Part shown: positions 4,770 to 43,248 of the stretch, piece by piece | Numbering within the stretch: position 1 is the first letter of the stretch | How the letters are laid out: each line of letters starts with the position of its first letter | IMG/VR virus record: IMGVR_UViG_3300027905_000001 | Location: 15,362 to 79,361 of that record | Length of the DNA: 64,000 nucleotides | Origin: a virus | Reading direction: 5' to 3' (one strand) | The notes under the pieces: generated by a model | What the model saw: the letters and a program-made list of their open reading frames with translations, nothing else | Database searches by the model: none | What the model was told of the DNA's origin: nothing | Made by a program: the position numbers and the translations under genes

Positions 4770-4812
4770 TTACATTTTCACAACCCTCCCTACATGTTTG
4801 CTACTATATATC

Positions 4813-4841
4813 TTGCATATGTCTTGACACCATGATATAAT
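4813..4841 (+). promoter_or_regulatory. Sigma-A-type promoter (TTGCAT-17-TGaTATAAT)
   Basis: -35 at 4813-4818, extended -10 at 4833-4841; the motif TATAATAAGTTAAGATC is repeated at 54668-54684. Confidence 0.55.
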
Positions 4842-4875
4842 AAGTTAAGATCTAATTTTGAAGGAGGTAAACGGC

Positions 4876-5271
4876 ATGACAAAGCTCGAAATTGCTAAAA
4901 ACATTAATGCCATCAAGGATTTAGGCCGCATTATTGCAACGAATTGGGAGATGGACTTTGTTGAAGGAGGAATCTATGACAATAAGGGCAATGTCGAAAG
5001 CTGGACTGACCGTGATAATTCAAAAGTGGCCTTTAAGCCCGAAAGCACCGGCACGATAACTTATGTCCTTCAATGCAATAAAGTCCCCTGTCACGTAGTA
5101 GACTACACTAGCACTGATGAAACTCGCGCCCTTGGCGCTACTGGCTGTGAAGATGAAGCTGAATGCCTGGTATTACCTGAAACAAAAATGATAATTACCT
5201 ACGTTTCCACTGAAGATGATTTCAACGAAATGGGATATTACTTAGTGGAAATGGAGATTGTCAATGAGTAA
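4876..5271 (+). CDS. Hypothetical protein (131 aa)
   Basis: ATG after GGAGG; track ORF 4858-5271. Confidence 0.5.
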   Translation: MTKLEIAKNINAIKDLGRIIATNWEMDFVEGGIYDNKGNVESWTDRDNSKVAFKPESTGTITYVLQCNKVPCHVVDYTSTDETRALGATGCEDEAECLVLPETKMIITYVSTEDDFNEMGYYLVEMEIVNE

Positions 5272-5869
5272 TCGCCATGGACACCCCCTTACTTCTGAAC
5301 AAAAGGGAGCGAGGGAGATTGAATATCGGAAAATGGCATTGGAATTTCATAAAGAAACAGGACGTTCGCCCCGGATGGCAGACTTACCTTTTCCTTATAA
5401 AATCTTTAAGGTTCACGACACGTGGAATGCATTTCTTGAAGATTGCGGGCTAGAGGTTAACCGTTTAACCACGGACGTTGAGAAATATTCTTTAATATTC
5501 GATTACAAGGAATTAGCTAAAAACTTAGAACGGACTCCTTACGCATTAGAATTTTATAAAAAATTTGGTTGCCAATACGCAGTCCGCAAATTATTTGGAT
5601 CATGGAATGCATTTGTTAAAGCTTGTGATCTTAAATTAAATAGATTCACAGGAGCAGAAAAAGAAGAACTTGTGGAACGCGTCTTGAAATTAGCTAAGAA
5701 ATTAGGTAAAACACCTACAACTCGTGAATTTAATGCACACGCAAAGAAAAGTAATCTATGCACGACGATGGTTATATGTCGGTATTTCGGAACATGGACG
5801 GAATGCCTTGAGTTTTGCGGGTTAGAGCCTAACCAAAATAAAAATTTTAAGCGTAGAAAGAAGGATTAG
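5264..5869 (+). CDS. Repeat protein with three W-NAF...CGLE units
   Basis: Repeats TWNAFLEDCGLE / GSWNAFVKACDL / GTWTECLEFCGLE. Confidence 0.5.
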   Translation: MSNRHGHPLTSEQKGAREIEYRKMALEFHKETGRSPRMADLPFPYKIFKVHDTWNAFLEDCGLEVNRLTTDVEKYSLIFDYKELAKNLERTPYALEFYKKFGCQYAVRKLFGSWNAFVKACDLKLNRFTGAEKEELVERVLKLAKKLGKTPTTREFNAHAKKSNLCTTMVICRYFGTWTECLEFCGLEPNQNKNFKRRKKD

Positions 5870-5871
5870 CG

Positions 5872-6036
5872 ATGGCAGAAACAACAACCGACGACCGCGA
5901 ACGCATGACACTACGCATCCCCCAGGACATTTGGCGCATGATCAAAATGGACCTGATTGACAAAAAAGAAAAGTCGGCCAATGAGCTTATCACAAACTTA
6001 ATATATGAGCACTACAAAGTACCCCGGCCGCAATAG
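5872..6036 (+). CDS. Ribbon-helix-helix (CopG/Arc-like) small DNA-binding protein (54 aa)
   Basis: MTLRIPQDIWRMIKMDL... beta-strand plus two-helix pattern; not in track (<60 aa). Confidence 0.45.
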   Translation: MAETTTDDRERMTLRIPQDIWRMIKMDLIDKKEKSANELITNLIYEHYKVPRPQ

Positions 6037-6086
6037 CTGGGGGTTTTCTTTACCTAAAAATACTTAATATTTATTGTCTTAATGCC

Positions 6087-6115
6087 TTGACACCACGACA
6101 TAAAAGATGTATTAT
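6087..6115 (+). promoter_or_regulatory. Sigma-A-type promoter (TTGACA-17-TATTAT)
   Basis: Shares CTTGACACCAYGAYATAA with the 4823 region. Confidence 0.5.
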
Positions 6116-6287
6116 TAACACATGGAAAACAGCACTCCAGCCCAATCCAGTGCAACAAACGCTTCCCCCGGCCAATTGCGGTCCGGGTCCGCCAAGAAGC
6201 CGAGAGAGAAAAGTTGACCGTGTGTCAGGGAAGAAGATTAATCCCGACAGGCTACAAAGGGAGCCGGGGAAAAAGGAGTTTTAAATT

Positions 6288-6497: not shown

Positions 6498-6610
6498 GAT
6501 TTGCAGATGGCACCGGCCAGCACCCGGTGTAATGCACTAGCAGGCGTCCAAAGTCGCCGCAAATGCATCCCGACAGCTCGCAAGGAACGGGGAAAAGGAG
6601 GTCAGGACAG

Positions 6611-7558: not shown

Positions 7559-7652
7559 TTGCAGAGGATTAGGAGCCTAAAAACTCCTAATAATGCGCTA
7601 GGCAAGCGGTTCCAAGCCCGCGCCAATCGCAATTTTGAAAGGTGGAGCAATC

Positions 7653-8077: not shown

Positions 8078-8157
8078 CATCAAGGCTTTTAGCCTTGGCT
8101 CAGCCGCTTTTTGAGCGGTTCAGCGAGGACTAAAAACGAATGAAAGAGGTAATTTAC

Positions 8158-9078
8158 ATGAGCATGATCAACGAACAACTAGCCCAACGATCAAAGGAAA
8201 ACATGAGTTTTTCCGACTACAAACCCGGCAGCGCAACGGCTGAATTCAACCAGGAAATAGCCAACGTCACCACGTTAGTTGAATCGGCCAAGCTCAGGGT
8301 ATCCGACGAAGGGAAAGCCAAGCTAGATCGTTTCCTAGCCTCTTACACCTCTCGTTATGCCGCATGGACCAATAAGCGCAACGCAAATGGTGCAGGACAT
8401 GTTAGTGTTATGATCGCAGGCCCAGCTAACTACAACATGAGAGCGCACGAAAAGTACATGAGCCGTGAAGGTAATCTCTGGAAAGAATACGAGGAATTCC
8501 GAAACCCTGAGTATAAAATTTCCTCCATCGTCGCAGGTGACAGAGTTATAAAATCCAATGATGTCAACGCTATTGAAAAATTGCAGGAGAAAATAGACGG
8601 ACTTGAAAAAATGCAGGAATTAATGAAAGCTTGTAACGCCATCATCCGTAAAAAGAAGCTGACCGACGAAGAGAAGATTGCTGCAATGGTAGAAGCTGGA
8701 GCCAGCGAAAAAGCCGCAAAAGAAACCTTGACCCCTAATTTTATGGGCAGAATAGGTTTTGCCTCTTATTCGCTCAGTAATAACAACGCAACGATCCGAA
8801 ACGCCAAGCAACGAATATCCCAGCTTGAGAAGATCGCTGCACGCGGCACGCAAGAGACTGTCATAGAATCAGACGCGGAGGAAACAAACGGCATACGCAT
8901 AGTTGACAATGTTGAAGCGCATCGGCTGCAAATATTCTTTAATGGCAAGCCATCGGCAGAAGTTCGAACACAGTTAAAGAAAAATGGATTTAGGTGGACG
9001 CCTAGTATTTCCGCGTGGCAGTCGTATCGAAGTGAGAGCGCAAACCGGGCAGCGCGTGAAATAGTGGCAGCAATGTAA
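8158..9078 (+). CDS. Hypothetical protein, C-terminus resembles DUF3560-like domain
   Basis: C-terminal motif LQIFFNGKPSAEVRTQLKKNGFRWTPSISAWQ; assignment from memory. Confidence 0.4.
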   Translation: MSMINEQLAQRSKENMSFSDYKPGSATAEFNQEIANVTTLVESAKLRVSDEGKAKLDRFLASYTSRYAAWTNKRNANGAGHVSVMIAGPANYNMRAHEKYMSREGNLWKEYEEFRNPEYKISSIVAGDRVIKSNDVNAIEKLQEKIDGLEKMQELMKACNAIIRKKKLTDEEKIAAMVEAGASEKAAKETLTPNFMGRIGFASYSLSNNNATIRNAKQRISQLEKIAARGTQETVIESDAEETNGIRIVDNVEAHRLQIFFNGKPSAEVRTQLKKNGFRWTPSISAWQSYRSESANRAAREIVAAM

Positions 9079-16643: not shown

Positions 16644-16847
16644 TTAGAAGGGTAGCTTAGGTAATTCCTCTAGTAATGGGTTTCTACCATAAACCCTTAC
16701 CTCGCATTCATCGCAGAAGACAGGGTTTATTGGCATCCCCCTGCATCCGCATTGTTCACCTTTACAGCAAAATTCTGGTTCGTATTCGTCGTAGACTTCT
16801 ATTTCTTTGTGGCATCCATCGCATTCGTAGATTTTCAACCGAATCAC
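16644..16847 (-). CDS. Cys-rich small protein (zinc-ribbon-like)
   Basis: CDGC...CCKGEQCGC...CDEC. Confidence 0.4.
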   Translation of the reverse strand: MIRLKIYECDGCHKEIEVYDEYEPEFCCKGEQCGCRGMPINPVFCDECEVRVYGRNPLLEELPKLPF

Positions 16848-16855
16848 TCCTTTTG

Positions 16856-17374
16856 TTAATTGATATAATTTGACATTAATTTTGCCCCGGCTTCTTGTAC
16901 GACCTTAACCGCTTGTTCAAGTTCTTTATATACTCCTAGCCCTATCTGTTTTCGATTAATCATTAAGTAGGCTCGCCATTTTTTGGATGATTTGCGCCAA
17001 CTAACGCCCCTAAATCCTGAATTAGTTTTGCATTCTGCTTTTCTATTTTGCATGTTTACTGAATGAGTTACATTTCTAAGATTCCCTTTTGTATTATTTA
17101 ATGTGTCATGGTCAACGTGATCTACCACTAAATCATCGGGGCAATTGGTTATTAATCGATGTAGGCGTTTTGGTTTCAATCCTTCGCTAATCGACACATT
17201 ACTTATGGCATAAAACGAACTTGTCCCTTCAGACCAAAGAGCATGCCACTTTGCACCACCTTTTTGGGCTATCTCTAAATCCTCCCTATCAATTAAAGTT
17301 TCCATCACAGATCCATCTTCTCTATCTAAAAATATTGCCACTTTATCCCCTCTAAATTCGAATCTGTTTTTCAT
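16856..17374 (-). CDS. HNH homing endonuclease with AP2 DNA-binding domain
   Basis: HNH block LVVDHVDHDTLNNTKGNLRNVTHSVN; AP2-like FRGVSWRKSSKKWRAYL. Confidence 0.7.
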   Translation of the reverse strand: MKNRFEFRGDKVAIFLDREDGSVMETLIDREDLEIAQKGGAKWHALWSEGTSSFYAISNVSISEGLKPKRLHRLITNCPDDLVVDHVDHDTLNNTKGNLRNVTHSVNMQNRKAECKTNSGFRGVSWRKSSKKWRAYLMINRKQIGLGVYKELEQAVKVVQEAGAKLMSNYIN

Positions 17375-17422
17375 ATTCTCACCTCCTTTTCTTATCTATA
17401 TTATACCATAAGCTTACCTAAG

Positions 17423-17451
17423 TTGCACTAAGGTTAAGCATGGTATATAAT
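17423..17451 (+). promoter_or_regulatory. Sigma-A-type promoter (TTGCAC-17-TATAAT)
   Basis: Consensus-like hexamers with 17-nt spacer. Confidence 0.6.
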
Positions 17452-17469
17452 ATAATTCGAGGTGAGGAA

Positions 17470-17631
17470 ATGGGAGATTTAAAAAACAGGCAAAGATATA
17501 CAACTTCCTTGGATAATGAGCTAGTGGAAAAGCTCAAAAAGTTATCAGAGAAGACGAAAATTGCCCAATCAAAGTTACTGGATGAAGCAATAGAATTAGT
17601 TCTTAAGAAATATGGGAAGCCTGATAAGTAA
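17470..17631 (+). CDS. Ribbon-helix-helix-like small regulator, paralog of 23632-23811
   Basis: RBS GAGGTGAGGAA; shares NRxR...D..L...L.KLS..T.I..SKL.DEA...LKKYG with its paralog; antisense to flanking operon. Confidence 0.5.
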   Translation: MGDLKNRQRYTTSLDNELVEKLKKLSEKTKIAQSKLLDEAIELVLKKYGKPDK

Positions 17632-17670
17632 GGGTTTCCCTTCCTTTCTGGTATTTAATTAGAATGATTA

Positions 17671-18085
17671 TCAAAAAGGAATGTCATCATCTAAGGAAAC
17701 TCCGTGACCAAATGAGCCTTTAGCCTCACTTGAGCTATTCGAGGATTCCGATAAGTTGCTATTCTTCGGGCTAAGGAATTCCACTTCGTCGGCAATCACG
17801 TCGTATGACCTTTTTTTTATTGCCATCCTTATCCGTGTAATCACTAATCTGTAGCGACCCTGTGACAAGGGCCTTATTTCCTTTTGCTAATGCGTTTGCA
17901 CATAGCTCTGCAAGCTGTTTAAAACATTTCACGTTAATAAAATCTGTCTCTTTCTCGCCTGCGGAATTCTTAAACCTTCGCCCGACCGCTAGTGTGAAGT
18001 TGGAAATAGCAACGCCCGAAGTTCCATAGCGTAACTCACAATCCCTCGTTAAATTCCCTGACAAAATAATCTTATTCATGCTCAC
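17671..18085 (-). pseudogene. ssb: Single-stranded DNA-binding protein, reading frame broken in an A8 run
   Basis: N-terminal OB-fold in one frame; SSB tail ...DDDIPF in the next; shift at T8 run 17811-18. Confidence 0.7.
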
Positions 18086-18254
18086 TTACCTCTTTCTGCT
18101 CAATCTCGAACTTAGCCCATAACCACACAATGATATTTAACAGATCATCCTTGGTTGTTCCGTTGTGAGTTACTAGGTCTAACTCGTTTTGCACAACTTT
18201 AATCTTTTGATATTCTTCTAGCTCATCCCAATTTGGATATTTCATTTTTGGCAC
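18072..18254 (-). CDS. Hypothetical small protein
   Basis: Track ORF. Confidence 0.35.
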   Translation of the reverse strand: MPKMKYPNWDELEEYQKIKVVQNELDLVTHNGTTKDDLLNIIVWLWAKFEIEQKEVSEHE

Positions 18255-18266
18255 ATCCTCATCCTT

Positions 18267-18671
18267 TTAGATCAAGTATCCTTTTCCCTTGCAACATTCG
18301 CACACCTTCCATTGAGTACACATACCCAAGTCGATAAACCAACCCTCAAGAACCTCGGTTACCTTTAGCCCCATGCCTTTGTCACCCACCTCTTTTGGCT
18401 GTTTCGAACAAGGACTTATATTGCTATCACACTCACATTCATCGCACTCTTCACAGGCAGTAACCATCGGCATCTTGTCCCACAATATGGATTCCGGCGT
18501 TGCTGTGCATTTTTGCTCACCAAGCATTTGCTTTATCGCTGGATTAAGATTAATTGACCAAAAAAGCATAGCCTTGTTATCCTCATCGTGCCTTAGTGGA
18601 TGCTTGCCTAAGTAAATGTGAGTCGGTCCACCTTCGAATTCGTTGATTATTCTTGGATTCATTTTAAACAC
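18267..18671 (-). CDS. Cys-rich hypothetical protein
   Basis: Track ORF; CEECDECECD and CECCKGKG clusters. Confidence 0.4.
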   Translation of the reverse strand: MFKMNPRIINEFEGGPTHIYLGKHPLRHDEDNKAMLFWSINLNPAIKQMLGEQKCTATPESILWDKMPMVTACEECDECECDSNISPCSKQPKEVGDKGMGLKVTEVLEGWFIDLGMCTQWKVCECCKGKGYLI

Positions 18672-18687
18672 ACATCCTCATTATTTT

Positions 18688-19383
18688 CTATTGTCCTATT
18701 GGTTCGCTTATTTTCTCGAATTCCAGTACATACACCCACGGATTTAAGCCCCATCCGTAGCCTCGTTTTTTGTTTAAATTATCCCAAAGTTCACTAAATG
18801 CATCCCTGGCCGTGAGATCAAATTCGGCAACATCGTCAAATTTTCCATCACCTATTTTGTCGTGAAAATCAATACAACCTTCGCTTCTTGCGTCTTCCTC
18901 AGTTATGATCTGCAACCTCTCGGCTCTAATATTTGTCACCTTCAGGAATAACCTAGCGGCTTTGCGTGGCATATAGATCGATGGCCGCCAGTAGTTAAAA
19001 TGCTCAGGGTTATCATCTGCCCTGTATACTATTGGGCAACCTTCAAAATCGTCGATATCAAGTTTTCCAGTTACTACCCGATAGTCCATATCAAGCTGTG
19101 ACCACGTTTCTCGAACCCAAAGGATATCTCCGACATCACGGGGTATTTTGCAATAATGACTTACCCGCCCATTATCCGACTCCCAGCACACGCACCCCTC
19201 GTTTTTGGAATTTGTCGAACTCGTGATTCTGCCAATAATATGATAATTTTCAGGCGGTTGATATTTAACTACTCGCCTTGTTTGAGTTTTCCTCCCTTCC
19301 AGAATCGCATTAATGGACTCACTAGAAAAAATTATCGGCTTTTCTTTAATCATTTTTTGCTCCTTTCTAGGCCCTCTATCCAT
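18688..19383 (-). CDS. ASCH/PUA-like domain protein (putative)
   Basis: IIFSSESINAILEGRKTQTRR ... GDILWVRETW; assignment from memory. Confidence 0.35.
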   Translation of the reverse strand: MDRGPRKEQKMIKEKPIIFSSESINAILEGRKTQTRRVVKYQPPENYHIIGRITSSTNSKNEGCVCWESDNGRVSHYCKIPRDVGDILWVRETWSQLDMDYRVVTGKLDIDDFEGCPIVYRADDNPEHFNYWRPSIYMPRKAARLFLKVTNIRAERLQIITEEDARSEGCIDFHDKIGDGKFDDVAEFDLTARDAFSELWDNLNKKRGYGWGLNPWVYVLEFEKISEPIGQ

Positions 19384-19469
19384 CTCGCCTTATAGTTTTG
19401 TACCTATTTTAATTTATCCAAGCCCTAGCACCACTCTATGGCCCTCTCATAGGATTATGCTCACTCCCA

Positions 19470-20129
19470 TCATGCGCGGATTACTCGCAATAACATCTCC
19501 TCAAATTCAATCTCCCTCAGCTCTCGAAGCGACCTTATGTTATCTCCCACGACAACCCATGCTTGCTTTATTTTTTCTTCAAGGCCAAAGTTCTCGTCAA
19601 TATTTGCCATGATTCTGTCCATGACTTCTTCCGTTTCCTCGACTTCTCGCGCGGTCCATGTTGGTTCTGGTTCGGCTAGGTCGCCAACATCATGATACAA
19701 ATATGATTCATCCTCAACTTTTTCGTCGAAACATTCTGCTTCATATGTCCCGTAACATTCTGAAACTTCGCTTTGTGATGTTTTAGGTTCGACTTTACCA
19801 ACTTCCGCACAATCATCCACCCCCTCACTCTCCAACGCCTCAGACACATCTTCTCGCTCTTCTACGGCAACCTCAGCCACTTCCTCCGCACTCTCTTTAA
19901 CTTGCTCGATGACCACCTTTCTTATCTTGATCTTCGCGTTAGCCTCCAACCCTTTTTTAAGCAAATAAGCTACACTTGTGCTAACGTCATACTTTCGCGC
20001 TACGTCGATGGTTAGCCCAATCGCGTTAAACTGTTCTATTGTTGTTATTTCTGCTCGCAATTTGTTTGCATTTTCAGATATTTTTGACATGTTCAGCCTC
20101 CTCATTCTTGTTATAGTTGCGTTTTCCAT
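19470..20129 (-). CDS. Acidic hypothetical protein with N-terminal HTH-like segment
   Basis: Track ORF. Confidence 0.4.
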   Translation of the reverse strand: MENATITRMRRLNMSKISENANKLRAEITTIEQFNAIGLTIDVARKYDVSTSVAYLLKKGLEANAKIKIRKVVIEQVKESAEEVAEVAVEEREDVSEALESEGVDDCAEVGKVEPKTSQSEVSECYGTYEAECFDEKVEDESYLYHDVGDLAEPEPTWTAREVEETEEVMDRIMANIDENFGLEEKIKQAWVVVGDNIRSLRELREIEFEEMLLRVIRA

Positions 20130-20340
20130 TGTCTGAGTATCCTAATTCGTCCCAATCGAAGATACCCACGTTCGAGCCCATGTCATGTTTGGCTCTAAAA
20201 TTGCAGATCCTTTTGGTGTTGCATCGTAATTCCTCCGCTATTTGCCTGTCTGTAAGTCCGTTTAGCCATAGTTGCTCGATAGCTTCAGCTTCCATAGGGC
20301 TTATTGATTGTGCCATTTTCATTTTGTACCTCCCTAACAA
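20074..20340 (-). CDS. Small HTH protein (sigma-70 region-4 / LuxR-like)
   Basis: LTDRQIAEELRCNTKRI. Confidence 0.4.
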   Translation of the reverse strand: MLGRYKMKMAQSISPMEAEAIEQLWLNGLTDRQIAEELRCNTKRICNFRAKHDMGSNVGIFDWDELGYSDNGKRNYNKNEEAEHVKNI

Positions 20341-20668
20341 GTTTTACTCCATAAAAATCCATCAACTTCGCACATGTAGGGCAAGGTATAGGATCAACCT
20401 CATCAGCGCATACTAGATACAACTCTGCACCTTCAAGGCTTTCCCTCGCATTAATGAGTGCCATTTGCTCTGCATGCACACTAGAACATTCGGCGTAATC
20501 TCCTACGTTATGCTCTATATCCAATCTGGAGCACGTAACGCATGTTGTAGGGCTTGTATTCCATCCCTTTGATATAATCTGACCATGCAGGACGATTACG
20601 CATGCGTAGCGACGCTTGAGGCAGTTCGAGCAGGGTAATAGTTTTCGTGCTTCGTCGAAGTAGTTCAA
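20285..20668 (-). CDS. Cytidine/dCMP deaminase-fold zinc enzyme
   Basis: VHAEQ (H-A-E) and PCPTC (PCxxC) about 28 residues apart; start overlaps radical-SAM stop by 4 nt. Confidence 0.6.
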   Translation of the reverse strand: MNYFDEARKLLPCSNCLKRRYACVIVLHGQIISKGWNTSPTTCVTCSRLDIEHNVGDYAECSSVHAEQMALINARESLEGAELYLVCADEVDPIPCPTCAKLMDFYGVKLVREVQNENGTINKPYGS

Positions 20669-21390
20669 ATGTTACCCTCCATAGCTTTTCTCAAATCATC
20701 CTTGATGTAATAATTGCACCCGTGCATCTTAAGTACCATTTCGACATTCTCGCCAGTCTGTTTCCAGTCAATCTGATTCGCTCTTGAATCGTAATTCCAG
20801 CGACCAACTTTCCAAAGGTCAACGTGTTTATGGAGAATATGGATAAAGTCAAGTGCATCGGCAGGAATGATGATAGGCTCAAGACTTACCCATGTTTTTA
20901 TTCCAAGCGTTCTTGCCGTTATGATGGCAGCTATTCGATCATCTACGGGTGCTGCGCCTTTTTCCCACCGTTCAGAGCATTTGCGGACAGTCAAGGTTGT
21001 CCCGAACGAATCACCCTTTTCGTACAAGCTAAAATCTCTACTCGCCCTCATGCCGCCTTTTGTTAGAACGGTGAAGTTTGCTCCTGCGTTTTTGATGGCT
21101 TCGATAATTTCTTTGGTTGGAGTTGTGTCAATATCGCAATAAGGATCTGTTGAAAAGCATAGAAGGATATTCTTGCCTTTGAACTTACCGCTTGATAATT
21201 GCTTTTTGGTCGCTTCAACTATTCCTTCGCGCGGTTTAACGTCAGCGAAATCTTCGTTTGGTTTCCATCTGTCGTGCATCTTTTTGGCAAAGCAATAAGT
21301 ACATAAATGTGAACATCCCTCGTAGATATTAAGAGCTAAGGGTGCATATTCAAGAGCTTTTCCGCTCGGCTTATAAATCGGATTGATCAT
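20665..21390 (-). CDS. Radical SAM enzyme (SplB/COG1533-like N-terminus)
   Basis: CxxxCxxC within LNIYEGCSHLCTYCFAKK. Confidence 0.65.
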   Translation of the reverse strand: MINPIYKPSGKALEYAPLALNIYEGCSHLCTYCFAKKMHDRWKPNEDFADVKPREGIVEATKKQLSSGKFKGKNILLCFSTDPYCDIDTTPTKEIIEAIKNAGANFTVLTKGGMRASRDFSLYEKGDSFGTTLTVRKCSERWEKGAAPVDDRIAAIITARTLGIKTWVSLEPIIIPADALDFIHILHKHVDLWKVGRWNYDSRANQIDWKQTGENVEMVLKMHGCNYYIKDDLRKAMEGNI

Positions 21391-21405
21391 ATTCTTCCTC
21401 CTCTA

Positions 21406-21588
21406 TTAGTCCCTATAGGCTTTTATACACTTCCCGATATCCATTTGCGTACCTGCACTTTTTGCAAGAACTGAACCCACTAACACGGAATCAAGGAATT
21501 CCCTAGCCTTCTTAGCTTCGTCGGGCGTTAGGTAATCTCTATATGTTTTTCGTGGCTTTTTGAATTGTCGGGCTGTTTTACCGAGCAT
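21406..21588 (-). CDS. Hypothetical small protein
   Basis: Track ORF. Confidence 0.3.
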   Translation of the reverse strand: MLGKTARQFKKPRKTYRDYLTPDEAKKAREFLDSVLVGSVLAKSAGTQMDIGKCIKAYRD

Positions 21589-21600
21589 GGCTTGCCCCTC

Positions 21601-22455
21601 CTAATCTTTTTTTGTCCTGTGGTCAAAATCTTTGGCAAATAATAAATGATCTACCGTCATGCCTAAAATCCTAGATACTGTAGCCTCGCCGTAATCTCCT
21701 AATCTTTCTTCAAGTGGTTTGGGGTAGTAGTTCGTCGTAAACCCCGTCAATAGATTGGCGCGATACCTTAGATCAATCAGCCGGTAATACATCGCTTGCA
21801 CCCATTCTGTGGGTTTTTCCTTGCCGACATCGTCCAAGATCAGAGCTTGAGCCTTGGCTAAAGTTTCAATCTTTGCCTCCATGCCACTTTCGTTTTTCCT
21901 GAACTGAGCATCCCTTAACTCTGCAAGTAAGTCGGCAGACGATACAAACACAACCTGCACCCCTTTATCAAGCATGTCCTTGGCGATAATGCTGGCTAAC
22001 ATCGTTTTCCCTACTCCTGGATTTCCGAGCAATAAAAACCCTTTGGCGTCCGATTCACTTTTGATTAATTCAGGCCATAGCTTTAAGTAATTAATTACAC
22101 CCTTGTGCATGTTTCGGTTTCCGTCGTTGACTTTATAATTAGCAAGGCTGTATCTGAGCTGTTGAGATGTTAGCCCGGATGATTTTAGTTTTCTGGCCGC
22201 GTTCTTCTTAATCTTACAAACACACTCCTTGTAAAGCGTTAGTCCGTATAAGTCTTTTTCATCAGTGGCAACTATCTCCCGATCTTCACAATCAGAGCAG
22301 TTATATTTCTTTTCGACAGGTTTTAAACTGTATCCAGATGTTCCAGTGTTGAAAAGGTTAAGTCTGTTCCTAACTTCTTCCTCTGAGGATTTCGGAGAGT
22401 ATGGGGTCCGTTTCCCAAGGTTTAGAATCTCCTTGATCGATTGAATTGCTTCCAG
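21601..22455 (-). CDS. DnaC/IstB-like AAA+ helicase loader; canonical start missing
   Basis: Walker A GNPGVGKT, Walker B LILDD; first ATG at 22110, but frame stays open upstream to 22477 with no ATG/GTG/TTG; AGGGAGG precedes CTG at 22455. Confidence 0.6.
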   Translation of the reverse strand: MEAIQSIKEILNLGKRTPYSPKSSEEEVRNRLNLFNTGTSGYSLKPVEKKYNCSDCEDREIVATDEKDLYGLTLYKECVCKIKKNAARKLKSSGLTSQQLRYSLANYKVNDGNRNMHKGVINYLKLWPELIKSESDAKGFLLLGNPGVGKTMLASIIAKDMLDKGVQVVFVSSADLLAELRDAQFRKNESGMEAKIETLAKAQALILDDVGKEKPTEWVQAMYYRLIDLRYRANLLTGFTTNYYPKPLEERLGDYGEATVSRILGMTVDHLLFAKDFDHRTKKD

Positions 22456-23290
22456 TTTTGTTACCTCCCTTGGCTTTTAAGTTCTTGCCCCATTTAACAC
22501 AATTTCCCAGCCACGTATTAATCTGTGATCTTGGTTTACTTTTTACATCAAGCGGCTTATCTAGTTTGTCGAAAGACCAGTCCTTAATCGCTCCCAAGAT
22601 ATCTATGGTTGGGTATCGTTCTTGAAGCTCTCGGTACATTTTCAATTCCTTCGCCCTGTCAATCGGATAATCCTTAACTTTTTCAAGTGTGCGAATTAGG
22701 TCTATTTCATCAGGCAGAAGAATGAGATCATTTTCTTTTCTTTCTTTTACTTCCTTTCCTTTACTATTCTCTTCTTTAGGGATTTCTGTAGGAAATAATC
22801 CATCTTCAAGAGGATTAATGTCTACATTAACTACAGATGGTAGGTTGTTACCGTCAACATAAACCATATTTACAGTAAAATTATCAGTTTGCTTAGGTGG
22901 AGAAATAAGTAGATATTCAGATATGAGCGTTATCTCTTTGCGTCTTTCTACAGATTTGAAGTATCTTTTTTGGATTCCTCCGCTAGTAAGTATTTCGTAT
23001 TTTAGATACAAGGATGAATTGAAAAATTCCCACTTAATGCAATCAGAAACTATCTCGGTGATAATATTAATGTCTACATTAACCTTACTGGAGAGTAGTA
23101 ATTGTTCGCGCTCTGTCCATTTATAGAAATATCCTTCCTTATATATTTTCATAAGAAGTTTGATTAAAACCGCAAATCCAGTGATCTTATGCTTTGCTTC
23201 AATAAGCAAAACTTTGTCGTCTTGGTCCATGTCAATATCGAGGGGAAAATAATCCAATCCCTCTTTTTGCGGTCTTGCCAAGTCATTCAC
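22370..23290 (-). CDS. Replication initiation / replisome-organiser protein (DnaD-like)
   Basis: N-terminal DYFPLDIDMDQDDKVLLIEAKHKITGFAVLIKLL typical of phage replisome organisers. Confidence 0.55.
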   Translation of the reverse strand: MNDLARPQKEGLDYFPLDIDMDQDDKVLLIEAKHKITGFAVLIKLLMKIYKEGYFYKWTEREQLLLSSKVNVDINIITEIVSDCIKWEFFNSSLYLKYEILTSGGIQKRYFKSVERRKEITLISEYLLISPPKQTDNFTVNMVYVDGNNLPSVVNVDINPLEDGLFPTEIPKEENSKGKEVKERKENDLILLPDEIDLIRTLEKVKDYPIDRAKELKMYRELQERYPTIDILGAIKDWSFDKLDKPLDVKSKPRSQINTWLGNCVKWGKNLKAKGGNKTGSNSIDQGDSKPWETDPILSEILRGRS

Positions 23291-23501
23291 CTTCCACTAA
23301 AGAAAAAATATCATCATATGGAATATCAAGCTCCTCAGCTATCTTCTTGGCTGTAGCAGGACTAGGGTTGAATCTGCCCTTTTCGATTGCATAAATACTT
23401 TCCTTGGACACTCCAACCTTCTTGGCTAAATCTGCAATTGACACGCCTTTTCTTATCCTTAACTCCGCTAATTTAGCTCGGTCGGTTTTAATTTTTAACA
23501 C
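23283..23501 (-). CDS. HTH XRE-family transcriptional regulator
   Basis: ELRIRKGVSIADLAKKVGVSKESIYAIEKG. Confidence 0.65.
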   Translation of the reverse strand: MLKIKTDRAKLAELRIRKGVSIADLAKKVGVSKESIYAIEKGRFNPSPATAKKIAEELDIPYDDIFSLVEGE

Positions 23502-23581
23502 TTACTTACCTCCGTTTCCTTAATCATCCTACTTATACATTATAACATATACTTGTACAAGTAACAATCAATAGGTATAAA

Positions 23582-23610
23582 TTGAAATAACTTTGTGTAG
23601 ACTGTATAAT
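23582..23610 (+). promoter_or_regulatory. Sigma-A-type promoter (TTGAAA-17-TGTATAAT)
   Basis: Extended -10 TGn at 23602-23604. Confidence 0.6.
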
Positions 23611-23631
23611 ACAAAGTTGGGAGGAGATATT

Positions 23632-23811
23632 ATGACTGGCGAATTAAGAAATAGAGAACGTTTTGGCGCTGCTTATGATAAAGATTTACTGGCCGGATTA
23701 CGCAAATTATCAAAAGATACACGAATTCCAGCCAGTAAGTTGATTGATGAGGCGTTAGAGGATTTATTGAAAAAATATGGAGTTGAGGTGAAGAGAGAAA
23801 GCCAGGAGTGA
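23632..23811 (+). CDS. Ribbon-helix-helix-like small regulator, paralog of 17470-17631
   Basis: RBS GGGAGGAG; antisense orientation. Confidence 0.5.
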   Translation: MTGELRNRERFGAAYDKDLLAGLRKLSKDTRIPASKLIDEALEDLLKKYGVEVKRESQE

Positions 23812-23829
23812 TTCCCTGGCTATTTTTTT
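23800..23829. terminator. Hairpin terminator between convergent genes
   Basis: agccagg/cctggct stem followed by TTTTTTT. Confidence 0.55.
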
Positions 23830-23852
23830 ACTCCCAATACATCTGACTTTTC

Positions 23853-25079
23853 TTACTCGACCCCTATTCTAGCCCTTGCAATACCCGCATAAGCTTTTTC
23901 TTTGTCAATTCCGATAAAATGGCAACCTACACCCTTTGCGGCCAATGCGGTTGTGCCTGATCCAATAAAGGGGTCTAGCACCGTACCGCCTTGAGGTGTG
24001 ACAAGTTTAATTAAGTACTTCATGAGATCAAGGGGCTTTACGGTAGGGTGATTATTACCTTCGCCCCGTTCCCTCTTGGAGGCCTTAGCACAATAAAAGA
24101 ATCTACTTGCCCCTCCCGAATCGCCATAACTAATCATTTCCGTTCCCTCTGGACGACTTTCTCTTGCGTAAGCATTAGCCTGATAACCTTTACTTGATAC
24201 TCCCTTTTTAGCTCCAGTTCCACTTTTCAGTATGCCTGTTTGCTCATCCAGAACTGCAGCTGCTACTTCATCAAAAATTATGTTTGCGGGAAATCTTCCC
24301 AATGGATTACTTTGGCTTTCTGTTAAGTTGGTTCCCTTTCCGTTTCCATATACTGTATTTGGTGTACGTGGTGGTCTACCTCTATCGTCATTGGTCCCTA
24401 TTCGGCTATCGTTGATATTGATCCCACCTGTTCCCCATTTAAGAACATTAGCCGCCACTGTCTTTTCGCTTAATGGTTTTCTGGCAACTACAATAGGTTC
24501 ATGCGCAGGTTTTAGAGCCGTACCCCAACCGTCCCATTGCTTTGCTTCATCAGTTTGAGCATCTAGATCGAATGTTCCACCCAACTCATACGATGCTGGC
24601 CTATCTCCCTGCTCTAAATGGATGTTATTGAAACCCATCCCTTGCTGCTGAAAATTAGTCTTTTCCAGCTTGCAGTAATCCTTTGTATTAGCTGACCCGT
24701 AAAGCAGTTTACCTTCAATACCCTTGGCAATGTTGTAAGACTTAGGGAATCCACTGCCATAAATCCACATGATCTGATCCCTGATCTCGAATCCAGCGTC
24801 TTCAATAGCACAAGCCATTCGGTGGTATGTTCTGCTCCCACCGAAGGATAGTAGATATCCCCCAGGCTTTAGTACACGTAAAAATTCTTTCCACATTGCA
24901 ACGTTGTAGGCAATTCCGGTATTGTCCCAAGACTTCCCCATGAATCCCAATTCATAAGGCGCATCCGTTACGCCAGAATCTATACTATTTGCGGGTATTC
25001 CCTTCATAACTTCCAGGCAGTCACCTAAAATAATTGAATCAAGCAAACTTTTACCCCTCCCTTTACTCAGCCTGTCCAC
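23853..25079 (-). CDS. DNA methyltransferase (N6-adenine / N4-cytosine beta-class)
   Basis: N-terminal TDAPY (DPPY-like) and C-terminal VLDPFIGSGTT (FxGxG), in beta-class order. Confidence 0.65.
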   Translation of the reverse strand: MDRLSKGRGKSLLDSIILGDCLEVMKGIPANSIDSGVTDAPYELGFMGKSWDNTGIAYNVAMWKEFLRVLKPGGYLLSFGGSRTYHRMACAIEDAGFEIRDQIMWIYGSGFPKSYNIAKGIEGKLLYGSANTKDYCKLEKTNFQQQGMGFNNIHLEQGDRPASYELGGTFDLDAQTDEAKQWDGWGTALKPAHEPIVVARKPLSEKTVAANVLKWGTGGININDSRIGTNDDRGRPPRTPNTVYGNGKGTNLTESQSNPLGRFPANIIFDEVAAAVLDEQTGILKSGTGAKKGVSSKGYQANAYARESRPEGTEMISYGDSGGASRFFYCAKASKRERGEGNNHPTVKPLDLMKYLIKLVTPQGGTVLDPFIGSGTTALAAKGVGCHFIGIDKEKAYAGIARARIGVE

Positions 25080-36336: not shown

Positions 36337-37002
36337 TCACCCCCTCGCTAACCGCTTTTTGGCGATATTTGACTTTTTAATCAATAAGTCTCTAATTTGG
36401 TAGTAATCGAATCCAAGTTCATAAAGTACAGCAATCTTATGTGTTTGATTCTCAACAAGTTCCATTTCGCCAGAAGTCATAAAGTCGAGTGCGACAGCCT
36501 TTTTATCCGCTCCACGTTCCTTACGGATACTTGCGGCAATTTTACCAAGAGCCGCTTTGTAGGATAGGTCGATAAAAAGTTTGTAATCCCACTCGCTACG
36601 ATTTGGATTTTCCTTAATCCTATCTAGCAAAGGTTTGCGAGTTGGTTTGAGTGTCATTTTACCGATTTGGCGTTTTTGAAGTTCGGTTCGCATTTCGTAG
36701 AATTGGCGAACGAGTTCGGTTTTGAAATCAATTACAGTTTCGGTATTTCTCAGGAAGGTAACTAAGAGTGTTGCTTGCTCCTCGTTCAGGTGATAAACCT
36801 TTCTAATTTGCGTACCACCTTTTGTTTCAAAGGGTGTCATTTCAAATGATACCCTTCCGAACTTTTCGAGCCGTTGCTGATGCTTTTCAATCAATAGATA
36901 AACTGAACGGTTTGCAATTTTTGCATACTCAGCGATTACATCACTCGTTGTAAATGGTATAGCCTTGATAGAGTTCGGTTCAAGAAAAACTAAGTCACCC
37001 AT
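36337..37002 (-). CDS. Phage regulatory protein Rha family
   Basis: NSIKAIPFTTSDVIAEYAKIANRSVYLLIEKH. Confidence 0.65.
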   Translation of the reverse strand: MGDLVFLEPNSIKAIPFTTSDVIAEYAKIANRSVYLLIEKHQQRLEKFGRVSFEMTPFETKGGTQIRKVYHLNEEQATLLVTFLRNTETVIDFKTELVRQFYEMRTELQKRQIGKMTLKPTRKPLLDRIKENPNRSEWDYKLFIDLSYKAALGKIAASIRKERGADKKAVALDFMTSGEMELVENQTHKIAVLYELGFDYYQIRDLLIKKSNIAKKRLARG

Positions 37003-37292: not shown

Positions 37293-37308
37293 TAAGTAAT
37301 ATTAACGC
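37293..37308. promoter_or_regulatory. Operator-like motif, copy 2 (overlaps cro-like stop codon)
   Basis: gtaagtaatattaacg. Confidence 0.5.
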
Positions 37309-37544
37309 AATGCGTCCAACACCGCCTCGGATTGGGCTTCCATTTCTACGTCTGGGAACAACTCGTTAACTGGAGTATCAAACAAGAAAGATAGCTTCAG
37401 CATTAACTTGCCACTAGGCGTTGCGTTGCCGTTCTCAATATACCTTATCATGGTCCCAGTAACTCCGACGGCAGCGCCTACTTTATCCTGTGTGCCATAG
37501 GCTCTTCTTAGTTGTTTGAATCTTTCTCGTTTATGTCTTGTCAT
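37302..37544 (-). CDS. Cro-like HTH XRE-family regulator (first gene of leftward early operon)
   Basis: AYGTQDKVGAAVGVTGTMIRYIENG; divergent from CI-like gene. Confidence 0.6.
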   Translation of the reverse strand: MTRHKRERFKQLRRAYGTQDKVGAAVGVTGTMIRYIENGNATPSGKLMLKLSFLFDTPVNELFPDVEMEAQSEAVLDALR

Positions 37545-37582
37545 TCTGTATCACCACCTTTGTCCTTGATAGAATATTATCA

Positions 37583-37598
37583 CGTAAATCATATTAAC
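37583..37598. promoter_or_regulatory. Operator-like motif, copy 3, in divergent promoter region
   Basis: gtaaatcatattaacg; -10-like TATACT at 37612-37617. Confidence 0.5.
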
Positions 37599-37645
37599 GC
37601 AATATGTAAATTATACTTTCTTTTATGGAAATGAGGAAAATATTT

Positions 37646-37984
37646 ATGATTATCGGTATGGGCAGTAGAATTAGAGTTCTTCGACTTGAACGAGGGTTAA
37701 CACAGGACCAAATGGCATATAAACTGGACATGAATCGTGCGAATTTCTCACATTACGAAAGAGACACATCTTCCCCACCGTGCGAAGTTCTGGTCAAAAT
37801 AGCTGATATTTTAAATACAACTACAGATTTCCTTCTTGGACGCACAGATACTAATCCACCCGATGCTGCAACAATCAAACAACTACAAGGAATTAATGAA
37901 TTACCGCAAGACAAGAGAAGATTTGTAATAAATATAATAAATTCGATTATTTCAGAAATAATCGAAGAGGCTAAGGAGGAATAG
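37646..37984 (+). CDS. CI-like HTH XRE-family repressor, coupled to integrase
   Basis: RBS GAGGAAAA; VLRLERGLTQDQMAYKLDMNRANFSHYERD; stop 3 nt before integrase ATG. Confidence 0.6.
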   Translation: MIIGMGSRIRVLRLERGLTQDQMAYKLDMNRANFSHYERDTSSPPCEVLVKIADILNTTTDFLLGRTDTNPPDAATIKQLQGINELPQDKRRFVINIINSIISEIIEEAKEE

Positions 37985-37986
37985 GT

Positions 37987-39465
37987 ATGCATGGAATACT
38001 ATACCTGCGCAAAAGCAGAGAAGATGAGCAATATGAAAAAAATACTGGCGAAGATGTTCTGCAAACCCATCGCGAACGTTTGGTTATGCTCTGTAAGTCG
38101 CGGGAAATTACCTTCGACGAACGCGCAGAGGTACGAAGCGGTGATACGATCGCAGGTCGGCCTAAATTTCAGAATATACTAGATACGGATCTCCCCTCTG
38201 GTCAATACTCTTGTATCATTGTTACTGAAATTTCTCGACTTGGCAGAGGGGACATGGAGGATGCAGGAAGAATATACAAAACCATAATCCACAACGAGAT
38301 TAAGATTGTCACGCCGAATAAAATATATGATCCGTTAAACCCTTCCGATCTTCGCCAGCTAAGGTTCGAGCTATTCATGTCTCGGGAGGAATACGAAAGC
38401 ATTAAGGAAAGACTATGGAATAATAGAAATTACCGGGCAACACAAGGTTATGCCGGCAATTATATTGTCACGCTCGGTTTTCGCCAGTCCAGGGGGATAG
38501 TCGAGATAATCCCCGAAGAGGAAAAATTAGTGCTTGAAATATTTACGATGCGCTCTGAAAATTACTCCTATCAAGAAATAGCGGATTACTTTAATTCCAG
38601 AAATTTAAAGACAAAACGCGGAACAAAGTATCATGAATCTACAATATATAAGATATTAAAAAATCCCAGGTATATAGGAGTGGCTAAGTGGCAAGGCAAG
38701 GAATATATAGCTAAGCACCCTGCGATAGTCTCATTGGACCTATGGAACTCTGCGCAGGATATCAACGCTGAAAGACATCACAAGAGACGAGGGTCAAAAA
38801 ACGATAACCCTTATCTAGTAGAGCTATACTGTCGAGAATGCGGGCAAAGGATGTACGGGGAACGCTCTACCCCGCAAAGGGTAATAGATGGTGTTCGAAA
38901 GCTATATAAAAGCAGAGACATCTATATTTGTAGGGGCAGAAAAAGCATCCCTAAATGTTGGCACCACATAGGAGCCAGCGTTGTTCACTCGACCATCCTT
39001 GATGAGCTTGGGAAGATAATATCAGATCCGCAGATTTTTCTTGAGTTAGTCAACGAGAGAGAATCAAGACTTGGCGTCGATACTAATGGTTTATCAGATC
39101 AAGTGGATGAATTAAATAAGCAAGTCAAGGATAAAAACATCCTTTTGGTAAAAATAGAGAACGATTATGAAAAAGGCGACCTATCCGCTTTGCTATATAC
39201 TAAACACGTTGAAAAAATATCCAAAGAAATAGCATCTATTGAAGGTAGGATAAAAAAAATTAAGGCCGATTTATTAAAATCAGCCATTAAGATTAGTCCT
39301 CCTATGGAATTACAATCAATTTTGAAAACATTCCTAAATAACTGGAACGCCTATCCTAATAGTGACAAGAAGCTCATCATTAGATCATTTCTTCCCAGGG
39401 TTGAGGTGAACAAGCAGGGTGAATTCTTTATCGCTATTACTTTGCCTGATTCTATCGAAATTTAG
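37987..39465 (+). CDS. Large serine recombinase (phage integrase, serine type)
   Basis: N-terminal resolvase-type catalytic domain (YLRKSREDE), recombinase domain, Cys-rich zinc ribbon, C-terminal coiled coil; 492 aa. Confidence 0.8.
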   Translation: MHGILYLRKSREDEQYEKNTGEDVLQTHRERLVMLCKSREITFDERAEVRSGDTIAGRPKFQNILDTDLPSGQYSCIIVTEISRLGRGDMEDAGRIYKTIIHNEIKIVTPNKIYDPLNPSDLRQLRFELFMSREEYESIKERLWNNRNYRATQGYAGNYIVTLGFRQSRGIVEIIPEEEKLVLEIFTMRSENYSYQEIADYFNSRNLKTKRGTKYHESTIYKILKNPRYIGVAKWQGKEYIAKHPAIVSLDLWNSAQDINAERHHKRRGSKNDNPYLVELYCRECGQRMYGERSTPQRVIDGVRKLYKSRDIYICRGRKSIPKCWHHIGASVVHSTILDELGKIISDPQIFLELVNERESRLGVDTNGLSDQVDELNKQVKDKNILLVKIENDYEKGDLSALLYTKHVEKISKEIASIEGRIKKIKADLLKSAIKISPPMELQSILKTFLNNWNAYPNSDKKLIIRSFLPRVEVNKQGEFFIAITLPDSIEI

Positions 39466-39515
39466 CAAACGGGAAACCTTCCGACAATTTCAAAATAGGG
39501 AAGGTTTCCCGTTTG
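39466..39515 (+). terminator. 17-bp perfect inverted repeat after integrase stop (terminator or att-site candidate)
   Basis: caaacgggaaaccttcc / ggaaggtttcccgtttg around a 16-nt loop. Confidence 0.5.
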
Positions 39516-39520
39516 CGGTT

Positions 39521-39784
39521 TTATATCTTTCCTTCATATAATAAGGATTTCAAGAGTTCTATTCCGTCATTGAATCCCTGCTTATATGTATTTTCCAGAA
39601 GAGCATCCACTCTTGATGTTGATAATTCTTCATAGCGATCAAAAATATTTCTTTCCTTACCCAGTAATCTTATTATGTCAACGCTCAAGGAAATGGATTC
39701 TTTTATCCACTCACTGTAATCAGTTGTTTCTTTTGTTTTTTGATAAGCAACGCCAAAGATTCTTTCCGGCATCAGCTTGTCCAT
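39521..39784 (-). CDS. Hypothetical protein
   Basis: Track ORF. Confidence 0.3.
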   Translation of the reverse strand: MDKLMPERIFGVAYQKTKETTDYSEWIKESISLSVDIIRLLGKERNIFDRYEELSTSRVDALLENTYKQGFNDGIELLKSLLYEGKI

Positions 39785-40194
39785 GATAATATCAAGTATT
39801 TTTTCAGTCGGAATATTTTTTTCAATATCTATATCCTCATCTCCTGCCTGAATTTATGTTTTACCAGTCTCTATATACTAGAACGTGTGTTCTTAATTTT
39901 CAAGGGGTAATTTGTCGCAAAAGAAATAAATCGTTTCTCTTCCCCTTTCTCTCGCTACCCGTAGGAACAAAGTCCTACAATCAGTCCTAGATATAATTCA
40001 GAATATTTATTTAAGTTATTGACAGTATACGCTATAACGTTTGTCGAAATCGCGTGAAATAAAGGAGGCCAAATGTGAATATTTTGTGATTATAAATTAT
40101 ACTTAAGTCTACATATTATAATACCTGCTACATTTTTGTGTTAGCAGGATTAATCCTATCCTCTGTGGAAGTATTTTCCTATGGTGGTGAGGCG

Positions 40195-40416
40195 ATGGAT
40201 TTAGAAGATAAGTTAAAGGATAACAAAATACAATACATACTAGACAAGCGTGATATGTCGCAAAAAGACCTTGCCGCAACGCTCGGGTGGTGGCCGAGTG
40301 ACATAAGCGACATCGTTAACGGTAAGGTTAAGCGCCTTACGCTCATTCGCGCTTCGATGATATCCGTTGCTCTCGGGTATTCGGTTGAGTATATTTGGCC
40401 TACTTTATTCAAGTAG
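40195..40416 (+). CDS. HTH XRE-like regulator
   Basis: ATG after GGTGGTGAGG; MSQKDLAATLGWWPSDISDIVNGK. Confidence 0.5.
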   Translation: MDLEDKLKDNKIQYILDKRDMSQKDLAATLGWWPSDISDIVNGKVKRLTLIRASMISVALGYSVEYIWPTLFK

Positions 40417-40431
40417 GCCAAATATTTTTTT
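40396..40431 (+). terminator. Rho-independent terminator overlapping gene 3' end
   Basis: 9-bp stem tggcctact/agtaggcca then T-run. Confidence 0.65.
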
Positions 40432-43244: not shown

Positions 43245-43248
43245 CACC

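Follow-up and report, generated by a model that had tools for sequence, protein, structure and literature searches.

Paralogous Arc-like ribbon-helix-helix genes in conserved cassettes of a Desulfosporosinus prophage early array: likely local repressors

A long array of phage early genes read from one strand is interrupted twice by a very small gene read from the other, and this raises the question of what such lone, opposite-strand genes do there. The DNA is a stretch of 64,000 nucleotides (the window; positions 15,362 to 79,361 of IMG/VR record IMGVR_UViG_3300027905_000001), and the two genes, here called RHH-A and RHH-B, encode paralogous ribbon-helix-helix (RHH) proteins (Table 1). They are the only solid plus-strand genes within a minus-strand early array of ~55 genes that extends over ~27 kb (~10.4–37.5 kb) and contains recombination genes, methyltransferases, a replication module, a single-stranded DNA-binding protein (SSB), RecU and a putative regulator (Pfam/PHROG); tail and lysis genes lie at 50.8–63.8 kb. 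A Candidatus Desulfosporosinus infrequens protein encoded on a 123.5 kb contig is 100% identical to RHH-B, and the element that hosts both genes is a temperate-phage-like prophage of Desulfosporosinus infrequens. The comparisons below indicate that RHH-A and RHH-B are expressed, selected genes. The most economical interpretation of their sequence and setting, and one that we consider likely, is that they encode local Arc-like repressors, probably autoregulated, each within a cassette of ~300 bp.

The reality of both genes and their family membership are established by several comparisons. RHH-A and RHH-B match Pfam RHH_3 (PF12651) at 72.8 bits (E 2.1e-20) and 60.1 bits (E 2e-16), respectively, against a gathering cutoff of 21.6, and they match phrog_3180, annotated as "Arc-like repressor", at E 1.4e-16 and 4.1e-12. 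A match to RHH_1 stayed below threshold (16.1 bits, cutoff 20.5), and neither protein matched the Pfam Arc family. An earlier note on this DNA had drawn both open reading frames (ORFs) where we find them, and the residue pattern that it read in the two holds up, with 25 of 48 positions identical (52%, E 2e-17). RHH-A begins at 17470; its orthologues are 75–89% identical and all begin MGDL or MSDL. A 63-aa NCBI model starting at 17440 was rejected, as it would start upstream of its own -10 box. Orthologues of RHH-B are 63–84% identical. For both genes, identity to orthologues falls from ~0.9 at codon position 2 to ~0.5 at position 3, which shows purifying selection. We rejected a reading of the two as spurious ORFs, and also one as partition proteins, there being no ParA nearby. 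Run against all six-frame ORFs of the window, the family profile recovered RHH-A and RHH-B as sole members. Megablast of 16800–24000 against phage records and tblastn of RHH-A against phages gave no match, and neither RHH-A nor the family profile had a significant match in sequence searches of the PDB. That the two genes encode Arc-like regulators, as the earlier note proposed in naming an Arc/Mnt-like family, is supported by the family matches, by the conserved bidirectional promoter/operator cassette described below and by published experiments on the Arc proteins of IS605 elements (bioRxiv 10.64898/2026.09.24.754181).

Three further small ORFs had been counted with these two in a family of five, and this wider family did not hold: hhalign to the family profile and a six-frame hmmsearch gave no RHH_3 match for any of them. 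ORF 5872–6036 has only a weak match to phrog_582 (E 0.002), ORF 54413–54580, on the minus strand, has only weak matches to RHH_5 (E 0.0027) and CdbA (E 0.059), and ORF 40554–40760 has no RHH match in Pfam, PHROG, PDB or NCBIfam searches. PDB and NCBIfam searches likewise gave no support for membership of these three.

The alternative offered in the same note, antitoxins without a visible toxin partner, fared no better. RHH folds are common among antitoxins, and the two genes could in principle encode type II antitoxins without a cognate toxin, or anti-defence decoys, and not dedicated transcription factors. Weak matches to Antitox_RHH (E 2e-4, 21.9 bits) and to a RelB-like antitoxin (E 0.0014, 18.8 bits) point that way, but lie below the respective model cutoffs of 27.2 and 50. 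Unlike type II systems with an RHH antitoxin, both genes are monocistronic and have no co-transcribed downstream toxin gene: a terminator and then a convergent gene lie behind RHH-B, and the convergent SSB gene lies behind RHH-A. No toxin family was found among 55 upstream neighbours in viral loci. Both proteins end 5–11 residues past helix B (alignment and AlphaFold2 model), and therefore lack the C-terminal extension with which such antitoxins bind a toxin. We regard an antitoxin or decoy role as very improbable.

What is conserved along with the proteins is a cassette of ~300 bp, in which the RHH gene is joined to a region of back-to-back promoters. Similarity to the DNA of other phage contigs ends at the cassette edges, at 17380–17682 for RHH-A and at 23527/23539–23833 for RHH-B; in locus L002 it runs on through the neighbouring gene for an XRE protein (23287–23813; 79% nt identity). 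The 90–100 nt upstream regions are 69–84% identical, which makes them as conserved as coding sequence, with synonymous sites at ~50%. In a ten-sequence alignment the columns of the -10 box, the -35 box and the ribosome-binding site (RBS) are invariant, with TnpB, HNH or an unknown gene as cargo, and they are likewise invariant across cassettes of the RHH-B type in a five-locus alignment. The conservation of the cassette is established by these alignments, and the architecture, beyond the gene itself, seems to be under selection. Orthologues of RHH-B (L001–L004) and of RHH-A (L005–L012) are always lone opposite-strand genes in phage early arrays, and cassettes linked to TnpB in L016 and L018 are 70–75% identical in nucleotide sequence to the RHH-A cassette. 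In L011 the lone plus-strand gene before the replication module (8698–8919) encodes a different, CopG-like RHH protein (KRKRFNIEFSDEIVNIIDDY...), which looks like a non-orthologous replacement at the same position.

From these conserved elements we infer promoter activity on both strands of each cassette and, with less confidence, the identity of the operators. The predicted promoter of RHH-B (TTGAAA-17-TATAAT, 23582–23610) is the best-scoring site in the 11 kb scanned. The earlier note had credited both genes with near-consensus promoters and good RBSs. The RBSs (GAGGTGA and GGAGG) are present and conserved in orthologues, and the promoter claim stands for RHH-B, with 11 of 12 consensus positions, and for the perfect -10 box of RHH-A at 17446–17451; it fails for the RHH-A -35 box, TTGCAC, which matches TTGACA at three of six positions and is absent from the consensus scan list. 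TTGCAC or TTGCAA is nearly invariant across ten related cassettes. The RHH-A control region also holds a 20-nt inverted repeat (17397–17416 and 17435–17454). Between the promoter elements the DNA varies with the type of the protein's beta-strand: RYT(T/N)S occurs with TAAG/CTTA boxes, RIGSA with a different core and RFGAA with the palindrome ACTTGTACAAGT. The strand differs in the same way between the paralogues (NRQRYTTSL in RHH-A, NRERFGAAY in RHH-B), and that they differ mainly in this DNA-reading N-terminal strand fits a use of different operators. The palindrome ACTTGTACAAGT occurs as an exact copy only once in the window. Searches of the window for further operator copies gave only chance-level near matches, which favours local action, and a wider regulon was rejected on this ground.

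The genes next to these cassettes were compared across the family in 57 viral loci (n = 55 upstream neighbours), near-duplicate loci being included, so that the counts are not independent. The pattern of neighbours is established: in 50 of the 55 loci the upstream gene is divergent, and about two thirds have a convergent gene downstream. Among the upstream partners are 11 TnpB (OrfB_IS605) and 8 XRE genes, together with homing endonucleases of the HNH_3 (7), HNH/HNH_5 (6), GIY-YIG (1) and LAGLIDADG (1) types. Homologues of the window's own HNH gene have RHH_3 partners, too, in L024, L025 and L043, and homologues adjacent to TnpB occur in L016, L018, L037-38, L062-64, L067-70 and the Bacillus phages LY4 and IEBH. 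An RHH-B homologue diverges from a TnpB "transposase" in LY4, IEBH and Bacillus phage 250. In LY4 (L013) and IEBH (L014) the RHH gene and its divergent TnpB lie at identical offsets (4773–6153) between different flanking genes, a pattern that fits joint movement of arc and tnpB as a single element. The family also reaches plasmids. CDP09 of Clostridioides difficile plasmid pCD630 (L152, 3464–4077), a PF12651 protein 56% identical to RHH-B, diverges from a helicase replication module, and another RHH of the family diverges from a parM-like gene on an IncL/M plasmid. Genes for an HNH endonuclease and a phage capsid protein are also present on the 7.9 kb pCD630. A scan of genome contigs found mostly Oscillospiraceae and Enterobacterales, and a further protein search returned only metagenome proteins. 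This link to TnpB and homing endonucleases was absent from the earlier note, as were the divergent minus-strand promoters, the XRE gene with its replication module and the HNH partner of RHH-A.

RHH-B shares its control region with the XRE/Cro-type helix-turn-helix (HTH) gene and, behind it, a unit of replication and nucleotide-metabolism genes, which include a Lin1244_N initiator (22370–23290), a DnaC-like loader (21601–22110, open to 22467), a radical SAM protein, a dCMP deaminase and SSB. We presume this unit to be the target of RHH-B. On its 3' side a two-way intrinsic terminator, with folding energies of -16.3 and -17.1 kcal/mol and z-scores of -3.65 and -3.39, separates RHH-B from the convergent methyltransferase gene. 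Given this terminator and its boundary position, RHH-B lies between two minus-strand transcription units and not inside one. The earlier picture of plus-strand genes within a minus-strand operon is right as to strand and array, and needs amending in that each gene stands at a boundary with a predicted divergent minus-strand promoter. Within the replication unit, the DnaC-like frame (21601–22467, minus strand) stays open for ~290 codons, and a 289-aa protein of L041 shares 78% identity with it. The frame lacks an ATG, GTG or TTG ahead of codon 120, shows an AGGGAGG RBS followed by CTG at ~22455, and overlaps the end of the initiator gene by ~100 nt. No origin repeats were found in the 22090–22400 gap, which is the N-terminal part of this ORF.

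The divergent XRE gene invites another explanation, in which RHH-B and XRE are the two repressors of a second bistable switch, comparable to CI/Cro or Mnt/Arc, and the switch determines whether or not replication fires; XRE would bind the palindrome and RHH-B would act as the lysogen maintenance repressor. Divergent RHH–XRE pairs occur in 8 of the 55 viral loci, and the XRE–intergenic–RHH-B block is the part conserved with L002, where the XRE protein is 88% identical and the replication initiator differs. In pCD-WTSI plasmids an XRE protein replaces the RHH protein at the same position (bioRxiv 10.1101/198473). The main CI-like/Cro-like pair of the prophage is located elsewhere (Table 1), which makes a second checkpoint plausible. 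Yet the conserved region of B-type cassettes (ATTATAACA..ACAAG..ACAATC..TGTATAAT) is kept in loci without XRE, where the divergent gene encodes a 55-aa non-HTH protein (L003), a DnaD-like initiator directly (L041) or an HNH protein (L036), and the site therefore tracks RHH-B rather than XRE. RHH-A, moreover, has no HTH partner, and bistability is not a property that can be read from sequence alone. We consider such a switch unlikely, though far from negligible, and retain local repression by RHH-B as the better account of this boundary.

At RHH-A the first gene downstream of the cassette's minus-strand promoter is the HNH-AP2 homing endonuclease gene, which is likely its regulated cargo. The hairpin listing of the scanned region shows no terminator after this gene, and its promoter would therefore also feed the phage genes downstream. 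This bears on the possibility that RHH-A and HNH form a selfish two-gene unit, an endonuclease with its own repressor and without a role in phage development, or that the endonuclease homes beside the cassette as its target. The frequency of homing endonucleases (~15) and TnpB (11) among the 55 upstream neighbours fits such a unit, as do the renewed pairing of HNH homologues with RHH_3 genes and the similarity of the TnpB-linked cassettes to that of RHH-A. Likewise L002, with its RHH-B orthologue and an SSB homologue, carries neither RHH-A nor HNH after SSB, and two preprints describe Arc-like proteins beside homing endonucleases (bioRxiv 10.64898/2026.09.24.754181; bioRxiv 10.1101/2023.11.20.567912). 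The closest RHH-A orthologues (L005, L008 and L011), however, hold the same array position with a cargo that lacks a nuclease signature, and the promoter before HNH would feed phage genes as well. Comparison with relatives found neither flanking repeats nor a clean empty site, synteny being too mosaic to judge the latter. We hold a purely selfish role for possible, though not probable, and continue to favour a role of RHH-A in local control of the array.

The 3' sides of the two genes differ. The hairpin after the RHH-A stop is not significant on either strand (folding z-scores -0.55 on the plus strand and -0.89 on the minus strand), and in the absence of a significant hairpin between SSB and RHH-A, read-through from SSB antisense to RHH-A is possible. 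The earlier note had suggested that convergent transcription might modulate the early operon. This is unlikely at RHH-B, where the strong two-way terminator separates the gene from the upstream unit, and possible at RHH-A, where no minus-strand terminator follows SSB. In its strongest form the suggestion would place the main function at the RNA level, plus-strand transcription colliding with, or being antisense to, minus-strand early transcripts, and the protein being secondary. The RHH genes do converge on the upstream minus-strand genes, and antisense read-through from SSB adds to its plausibility. Strong purifying selection on the protein sequences and the insulation of RHH-B argue the other way, as does the prediction that plus-strand transcripts stop ~40 nt before the convergent genes without overlap. 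An Rfam search of 16–25.5 kb gave no RNA family match, including no group I intron or omega RNA near the cassettes. A mainly RNA-level function appears improbable. The SSB gene itself (17671–18085, minus strand) is split by a frameshift in an A8 run at ~17816–17823: the OB-fold part lies at 17771–18085, and a C-terminal tail ending in DDDIPF lies in the other frame at 17671–17868. Both frames are covered in alignments with the SSBs of L002, L008 and L011. The frameshift could be a sequencing error, prophage decay or slippage.

The primary lysogeny switch of the prophage lies at 37302–39465, where a Cro-like gene, with a Rha-like gene beside it, diverges from a CI-like HTH gene and the serine integrase. 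The role of primary immunity repressor therefore does not fall to the RHH genes. Adjoining the integrase is a plus-strand, plasmid-like or integrative and conjugative element-like block (39500–45500), which contains ORF 40554–40760 together with an HTH gene (40138–40416), an FtsK/SpoIIIE-like ATPase (41163–42491), Replic_Relax (42606–43244) and a perfect 12/12 consensus promoter at 43667–43695. At the other end of the window, two Twister-P5 ribozyme matches (6502–6558 and 7560–7621, both plus strand; 39.7 and 44.1 bits against the Rfam gathering score of 37.6) are located in an array of small plus-strand genes, together with a primase (8140–9078).

Table 1. Positions in the window of the two RHH genes, their predicted control elements and neighbouring features.
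Feature	Position	Strand	Evidence and remarks
RHH-A, RHH_3 Arc-like, 53 aa	17470–17631	+	Pfam RHH_3, phrog_3180, orthologues
RHH-A bidirectional control region	17375–17469		Sequence reading and ten-sequence alignment
RHH-A predicted plus promoter	-35 TTGCAC 17423–17428; -10 TATAAT 17446–17451	+
RHH-A cassette predicted extended -10, TGGTATAAT	17408–17400	-	Mirror image, 26 nt before HNH start codon
RHH-A RBS, AGGTGA	17460–17465	+	Present, conserved in orthologues
TAAG/CTTA boxes (n = 5, three spaced 10 bp)	17409–17438		Candidate operator around RHH-A -35
HNH-AP2 homing endonuclease gene	16856–17374	-	Pfam HNH_3 E 3.5e-6, AP2 E 1.8e-5; phrog_99 HNH endonuclease E 5.5e-34
Weak hairpin after RHH-A stop	17630–17642	+	Not a convincing terminator on either strand
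RHH-B, RHH_3 Arc-like, 59 aa, RHH-A paralogue	23632–23811	+	Pfam RHH_3, phrog_3180, orthologues
RHH-B bidirectional control region	23502–23631		Promoter scan, sequence reading, five-locus alignment
RHH-B predicted plus promoter	-35 TTGAAA 23582–23587; -10 TATAAT 23605–23610	+	17-nt spacer; 11/12
Divergent predicted promoter, RHH-B cassette	TTGTTA 23567–23562; extended -10 TGTTATAAT 23547–23539	-	17-nt spacer; TATAAT with TG; 10/12
Perfect palindrome ACTTGTACAAGT	23551–23562		Candidate operator in minus promoter spacer, 1-base overlap with -35
Half-site AACTTTGT	23589–23596		Related to palindrome; in RHH-B plus promoter spacer
Two-way intrinsic terminator	23800–23821	both	Between RHH-B and methyltransferase gene; ends both transcription units
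Methyltransferase gene	23853–25079	-	Convergent with RHH-B
XRE/Cro-type HTH gene, 72 aa	23283–23501	-	Pfam HTH_3 E 3.3e-16; first gene of unit diverging from RHH-B
Replication and nucleotide-metabolism unit	17671–23290	-	Downstream of XRE; Pfam, PHROG, tblastn
Rha-like gene	36337–37002		Beside Cro-like gene; diverges from CI-like HTH and integrase
Cro-like HTH gene	37302–37544	-	Diverges from CI-like HTH and integrase
CI-like HTH gene	37625–37984	+	Main lysogeny switch
Serine integrase	37987–39465	+	Main lysogeny switch

We hypothesize that each RHH protein dimerises and that the dimer would bind repeats between and within the two back-to-back sigma-A-type promoters, and would thereby throttle the divergent minus-strand promoter and probably its own promoter too. 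RHH-B would gate the promoter of the XRE gene and the phage replication module through ACTTGTACAAGT in the spacer, while RHH-A, acting through the TAAG/CTTA boxes around its -35, would gate the promoter before HNH-AP2 and the genes behind it, which include RecU and the putative late regulator. The cassettes may in this way divide the long early array into separately controlled transcription units and keep otherwise constitutive internal promoters quiet, for example in a lysogen.

Several observations weigh against this proposal. Promoter-like matches in the 11 kb scan are not above chance (24 found, 26 expected), and sites of at least 11/12 number four in the window against 1.7 expected; with consensus matches at chance level, the case for the promoters rests on position and conservation. 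The -35 box of RHH-A, with half of the consensus positions, adds to this doubt. Both operator assignments are tentative: the TAAG boxes are only partly conserved in the ten-sequence alignment, and in L036 and L041 the B-type palindrome has a degenerate left half. The region shared by RHH-B and the XRE gene could be regulated chiefly by the XRE protein, and near-duplicate loci enter into the neighbour counts. Structure prediction is equivocal as well. The AlphaFold2 monomer, of moderate confidence (pLDDT 69.6), has helices at residues 16–29 and 33–48 and also folds the N-terminus (residues 5–12) into a helix where a strand would be expected. The top Foldseek matches in PDB are all RHH repressors (CopG, SvtR, StnY and Arc), but their E values exceed 1 and none is significant. 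The contact residues N5, N7 and T9 of the tested IS605 Arc proteins are not obviously common to RHH-A and RHH-B. Finally, as to the direction of regulation, some RHH proteins are activators.

If local repression holds, the "early operons" of Clostridia-type temperate phages would consist of several units, each with a small local repressor, and predictions of timing, lysogenic silencing and mosaic module exchange would change accordingly. The paralogue pair, with its different reading strands and candidate operators, would offer natural material for the study of how RHH specificity diverges. A more far-reaching and doubtful proposal is that the ~300 bp module has been horizontally exchanged among IS605 arc-tnpB, homing endonuclease genes and plasmid and phage replication modules, and that two diverged copies were co-opted here as independent checkpoints with their own operator specificity, gating replication and a middle gene block apart from the CI/Cro switch. 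Were this true, the control logic of IS605 Arc would reach homing endonucleases and the replication modules of phages and plasmids, and a transposon-style self-restraint would have been reused for phage developmental control.

Known systems offer partial likenesses. In the immI region of phage P22, the small RHH repressors Arc and Mnt act in a secondary control region of a temperate phage, away from the main repressor, where the overlapping divergent promoters Pant and Pmnt control the antirepressor gene ant and the operator lies between -35 and -10. Here too we find a putative secondary control region, predicted divergent promoters and, in the RHH-B palindrome, a candidate operator between -35 and -10. 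The present proteins differ in belonging to another sequence family (RHH_3, with no Pfam Arc match), in having no ant-like gene adjacent, the only Rha-type gene being 13 kb away, and in being monocistronic and facing away from their target.

CopG of plasmid pMV158 keeps RNA polymerase from reaching the rep promoter and so represses it (PMC2724298). Like CopG, and like the putative regulator CDP09 of pCD630 (bioRxiv 10.1101/198473), RHH-B is an RHH protein at the predicted promoter of a replication module, and a functional analogy in the control of a replication promoter is possible. Unlike copG, which is co-transcribed with repB and belongs to Pfam RHH_1, RHH-B is divergent from its replication unit and belongs to RHH_3.

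The "Arc" RHH proteins of IS605 elements bind and repress the bidirectional arc/tnpB promoter, as documented by ChIP-seq, red fluorescent protein reporters and mutants of protein and site (Moon, Zedaveinyte, Wiegand & Sternberg 2026, bioRxiv 10.64898/2026.09.24.754181). The same clade was reported there beside homing endonucleases, and an earlier preprint first noted the same associations of Arc-like proteins (bioRxiv 10.1101/2023.11.20.567912). With these proteins RHH-A and RHH-B share a stand-alone RHH of ~50 aa, divergent from its neighbour across a short region with two opposed, here predicted, promoters. In IS605 Arc the binding motifs lie over promoter elements and autoregulation has been proposed, as it is here, with candidate operators that overlap such elements. 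Homologues beside OrfB_IS605 TnpB are 64–70% identical to RHH-A (L016, L018), and those beside TnpB in Bacillus phages LY4, IEBH and 250 are 48–60% identical to RHH-B. Searches for the tested Arc proteins (WP_094548610.1 and WP_003367503.1) gave no P. xylanilyticum or C. botulinum entries among the matches. RHH-A and RHH-B differ in lying neither beside tnpA/tnpB nor in an insertion sequence, in having an HNH-AP2 gene and the XRE-replication module of a prophage as partners, and in being two diverged paralogues within one element. Set beside these systems, the locus is a further, well-documented case of a known principle, not of a new one, and its modest added interest lies in the proposed exchange of one cassette among transposons, homing endonucleases, plasmids and phage replication modules.

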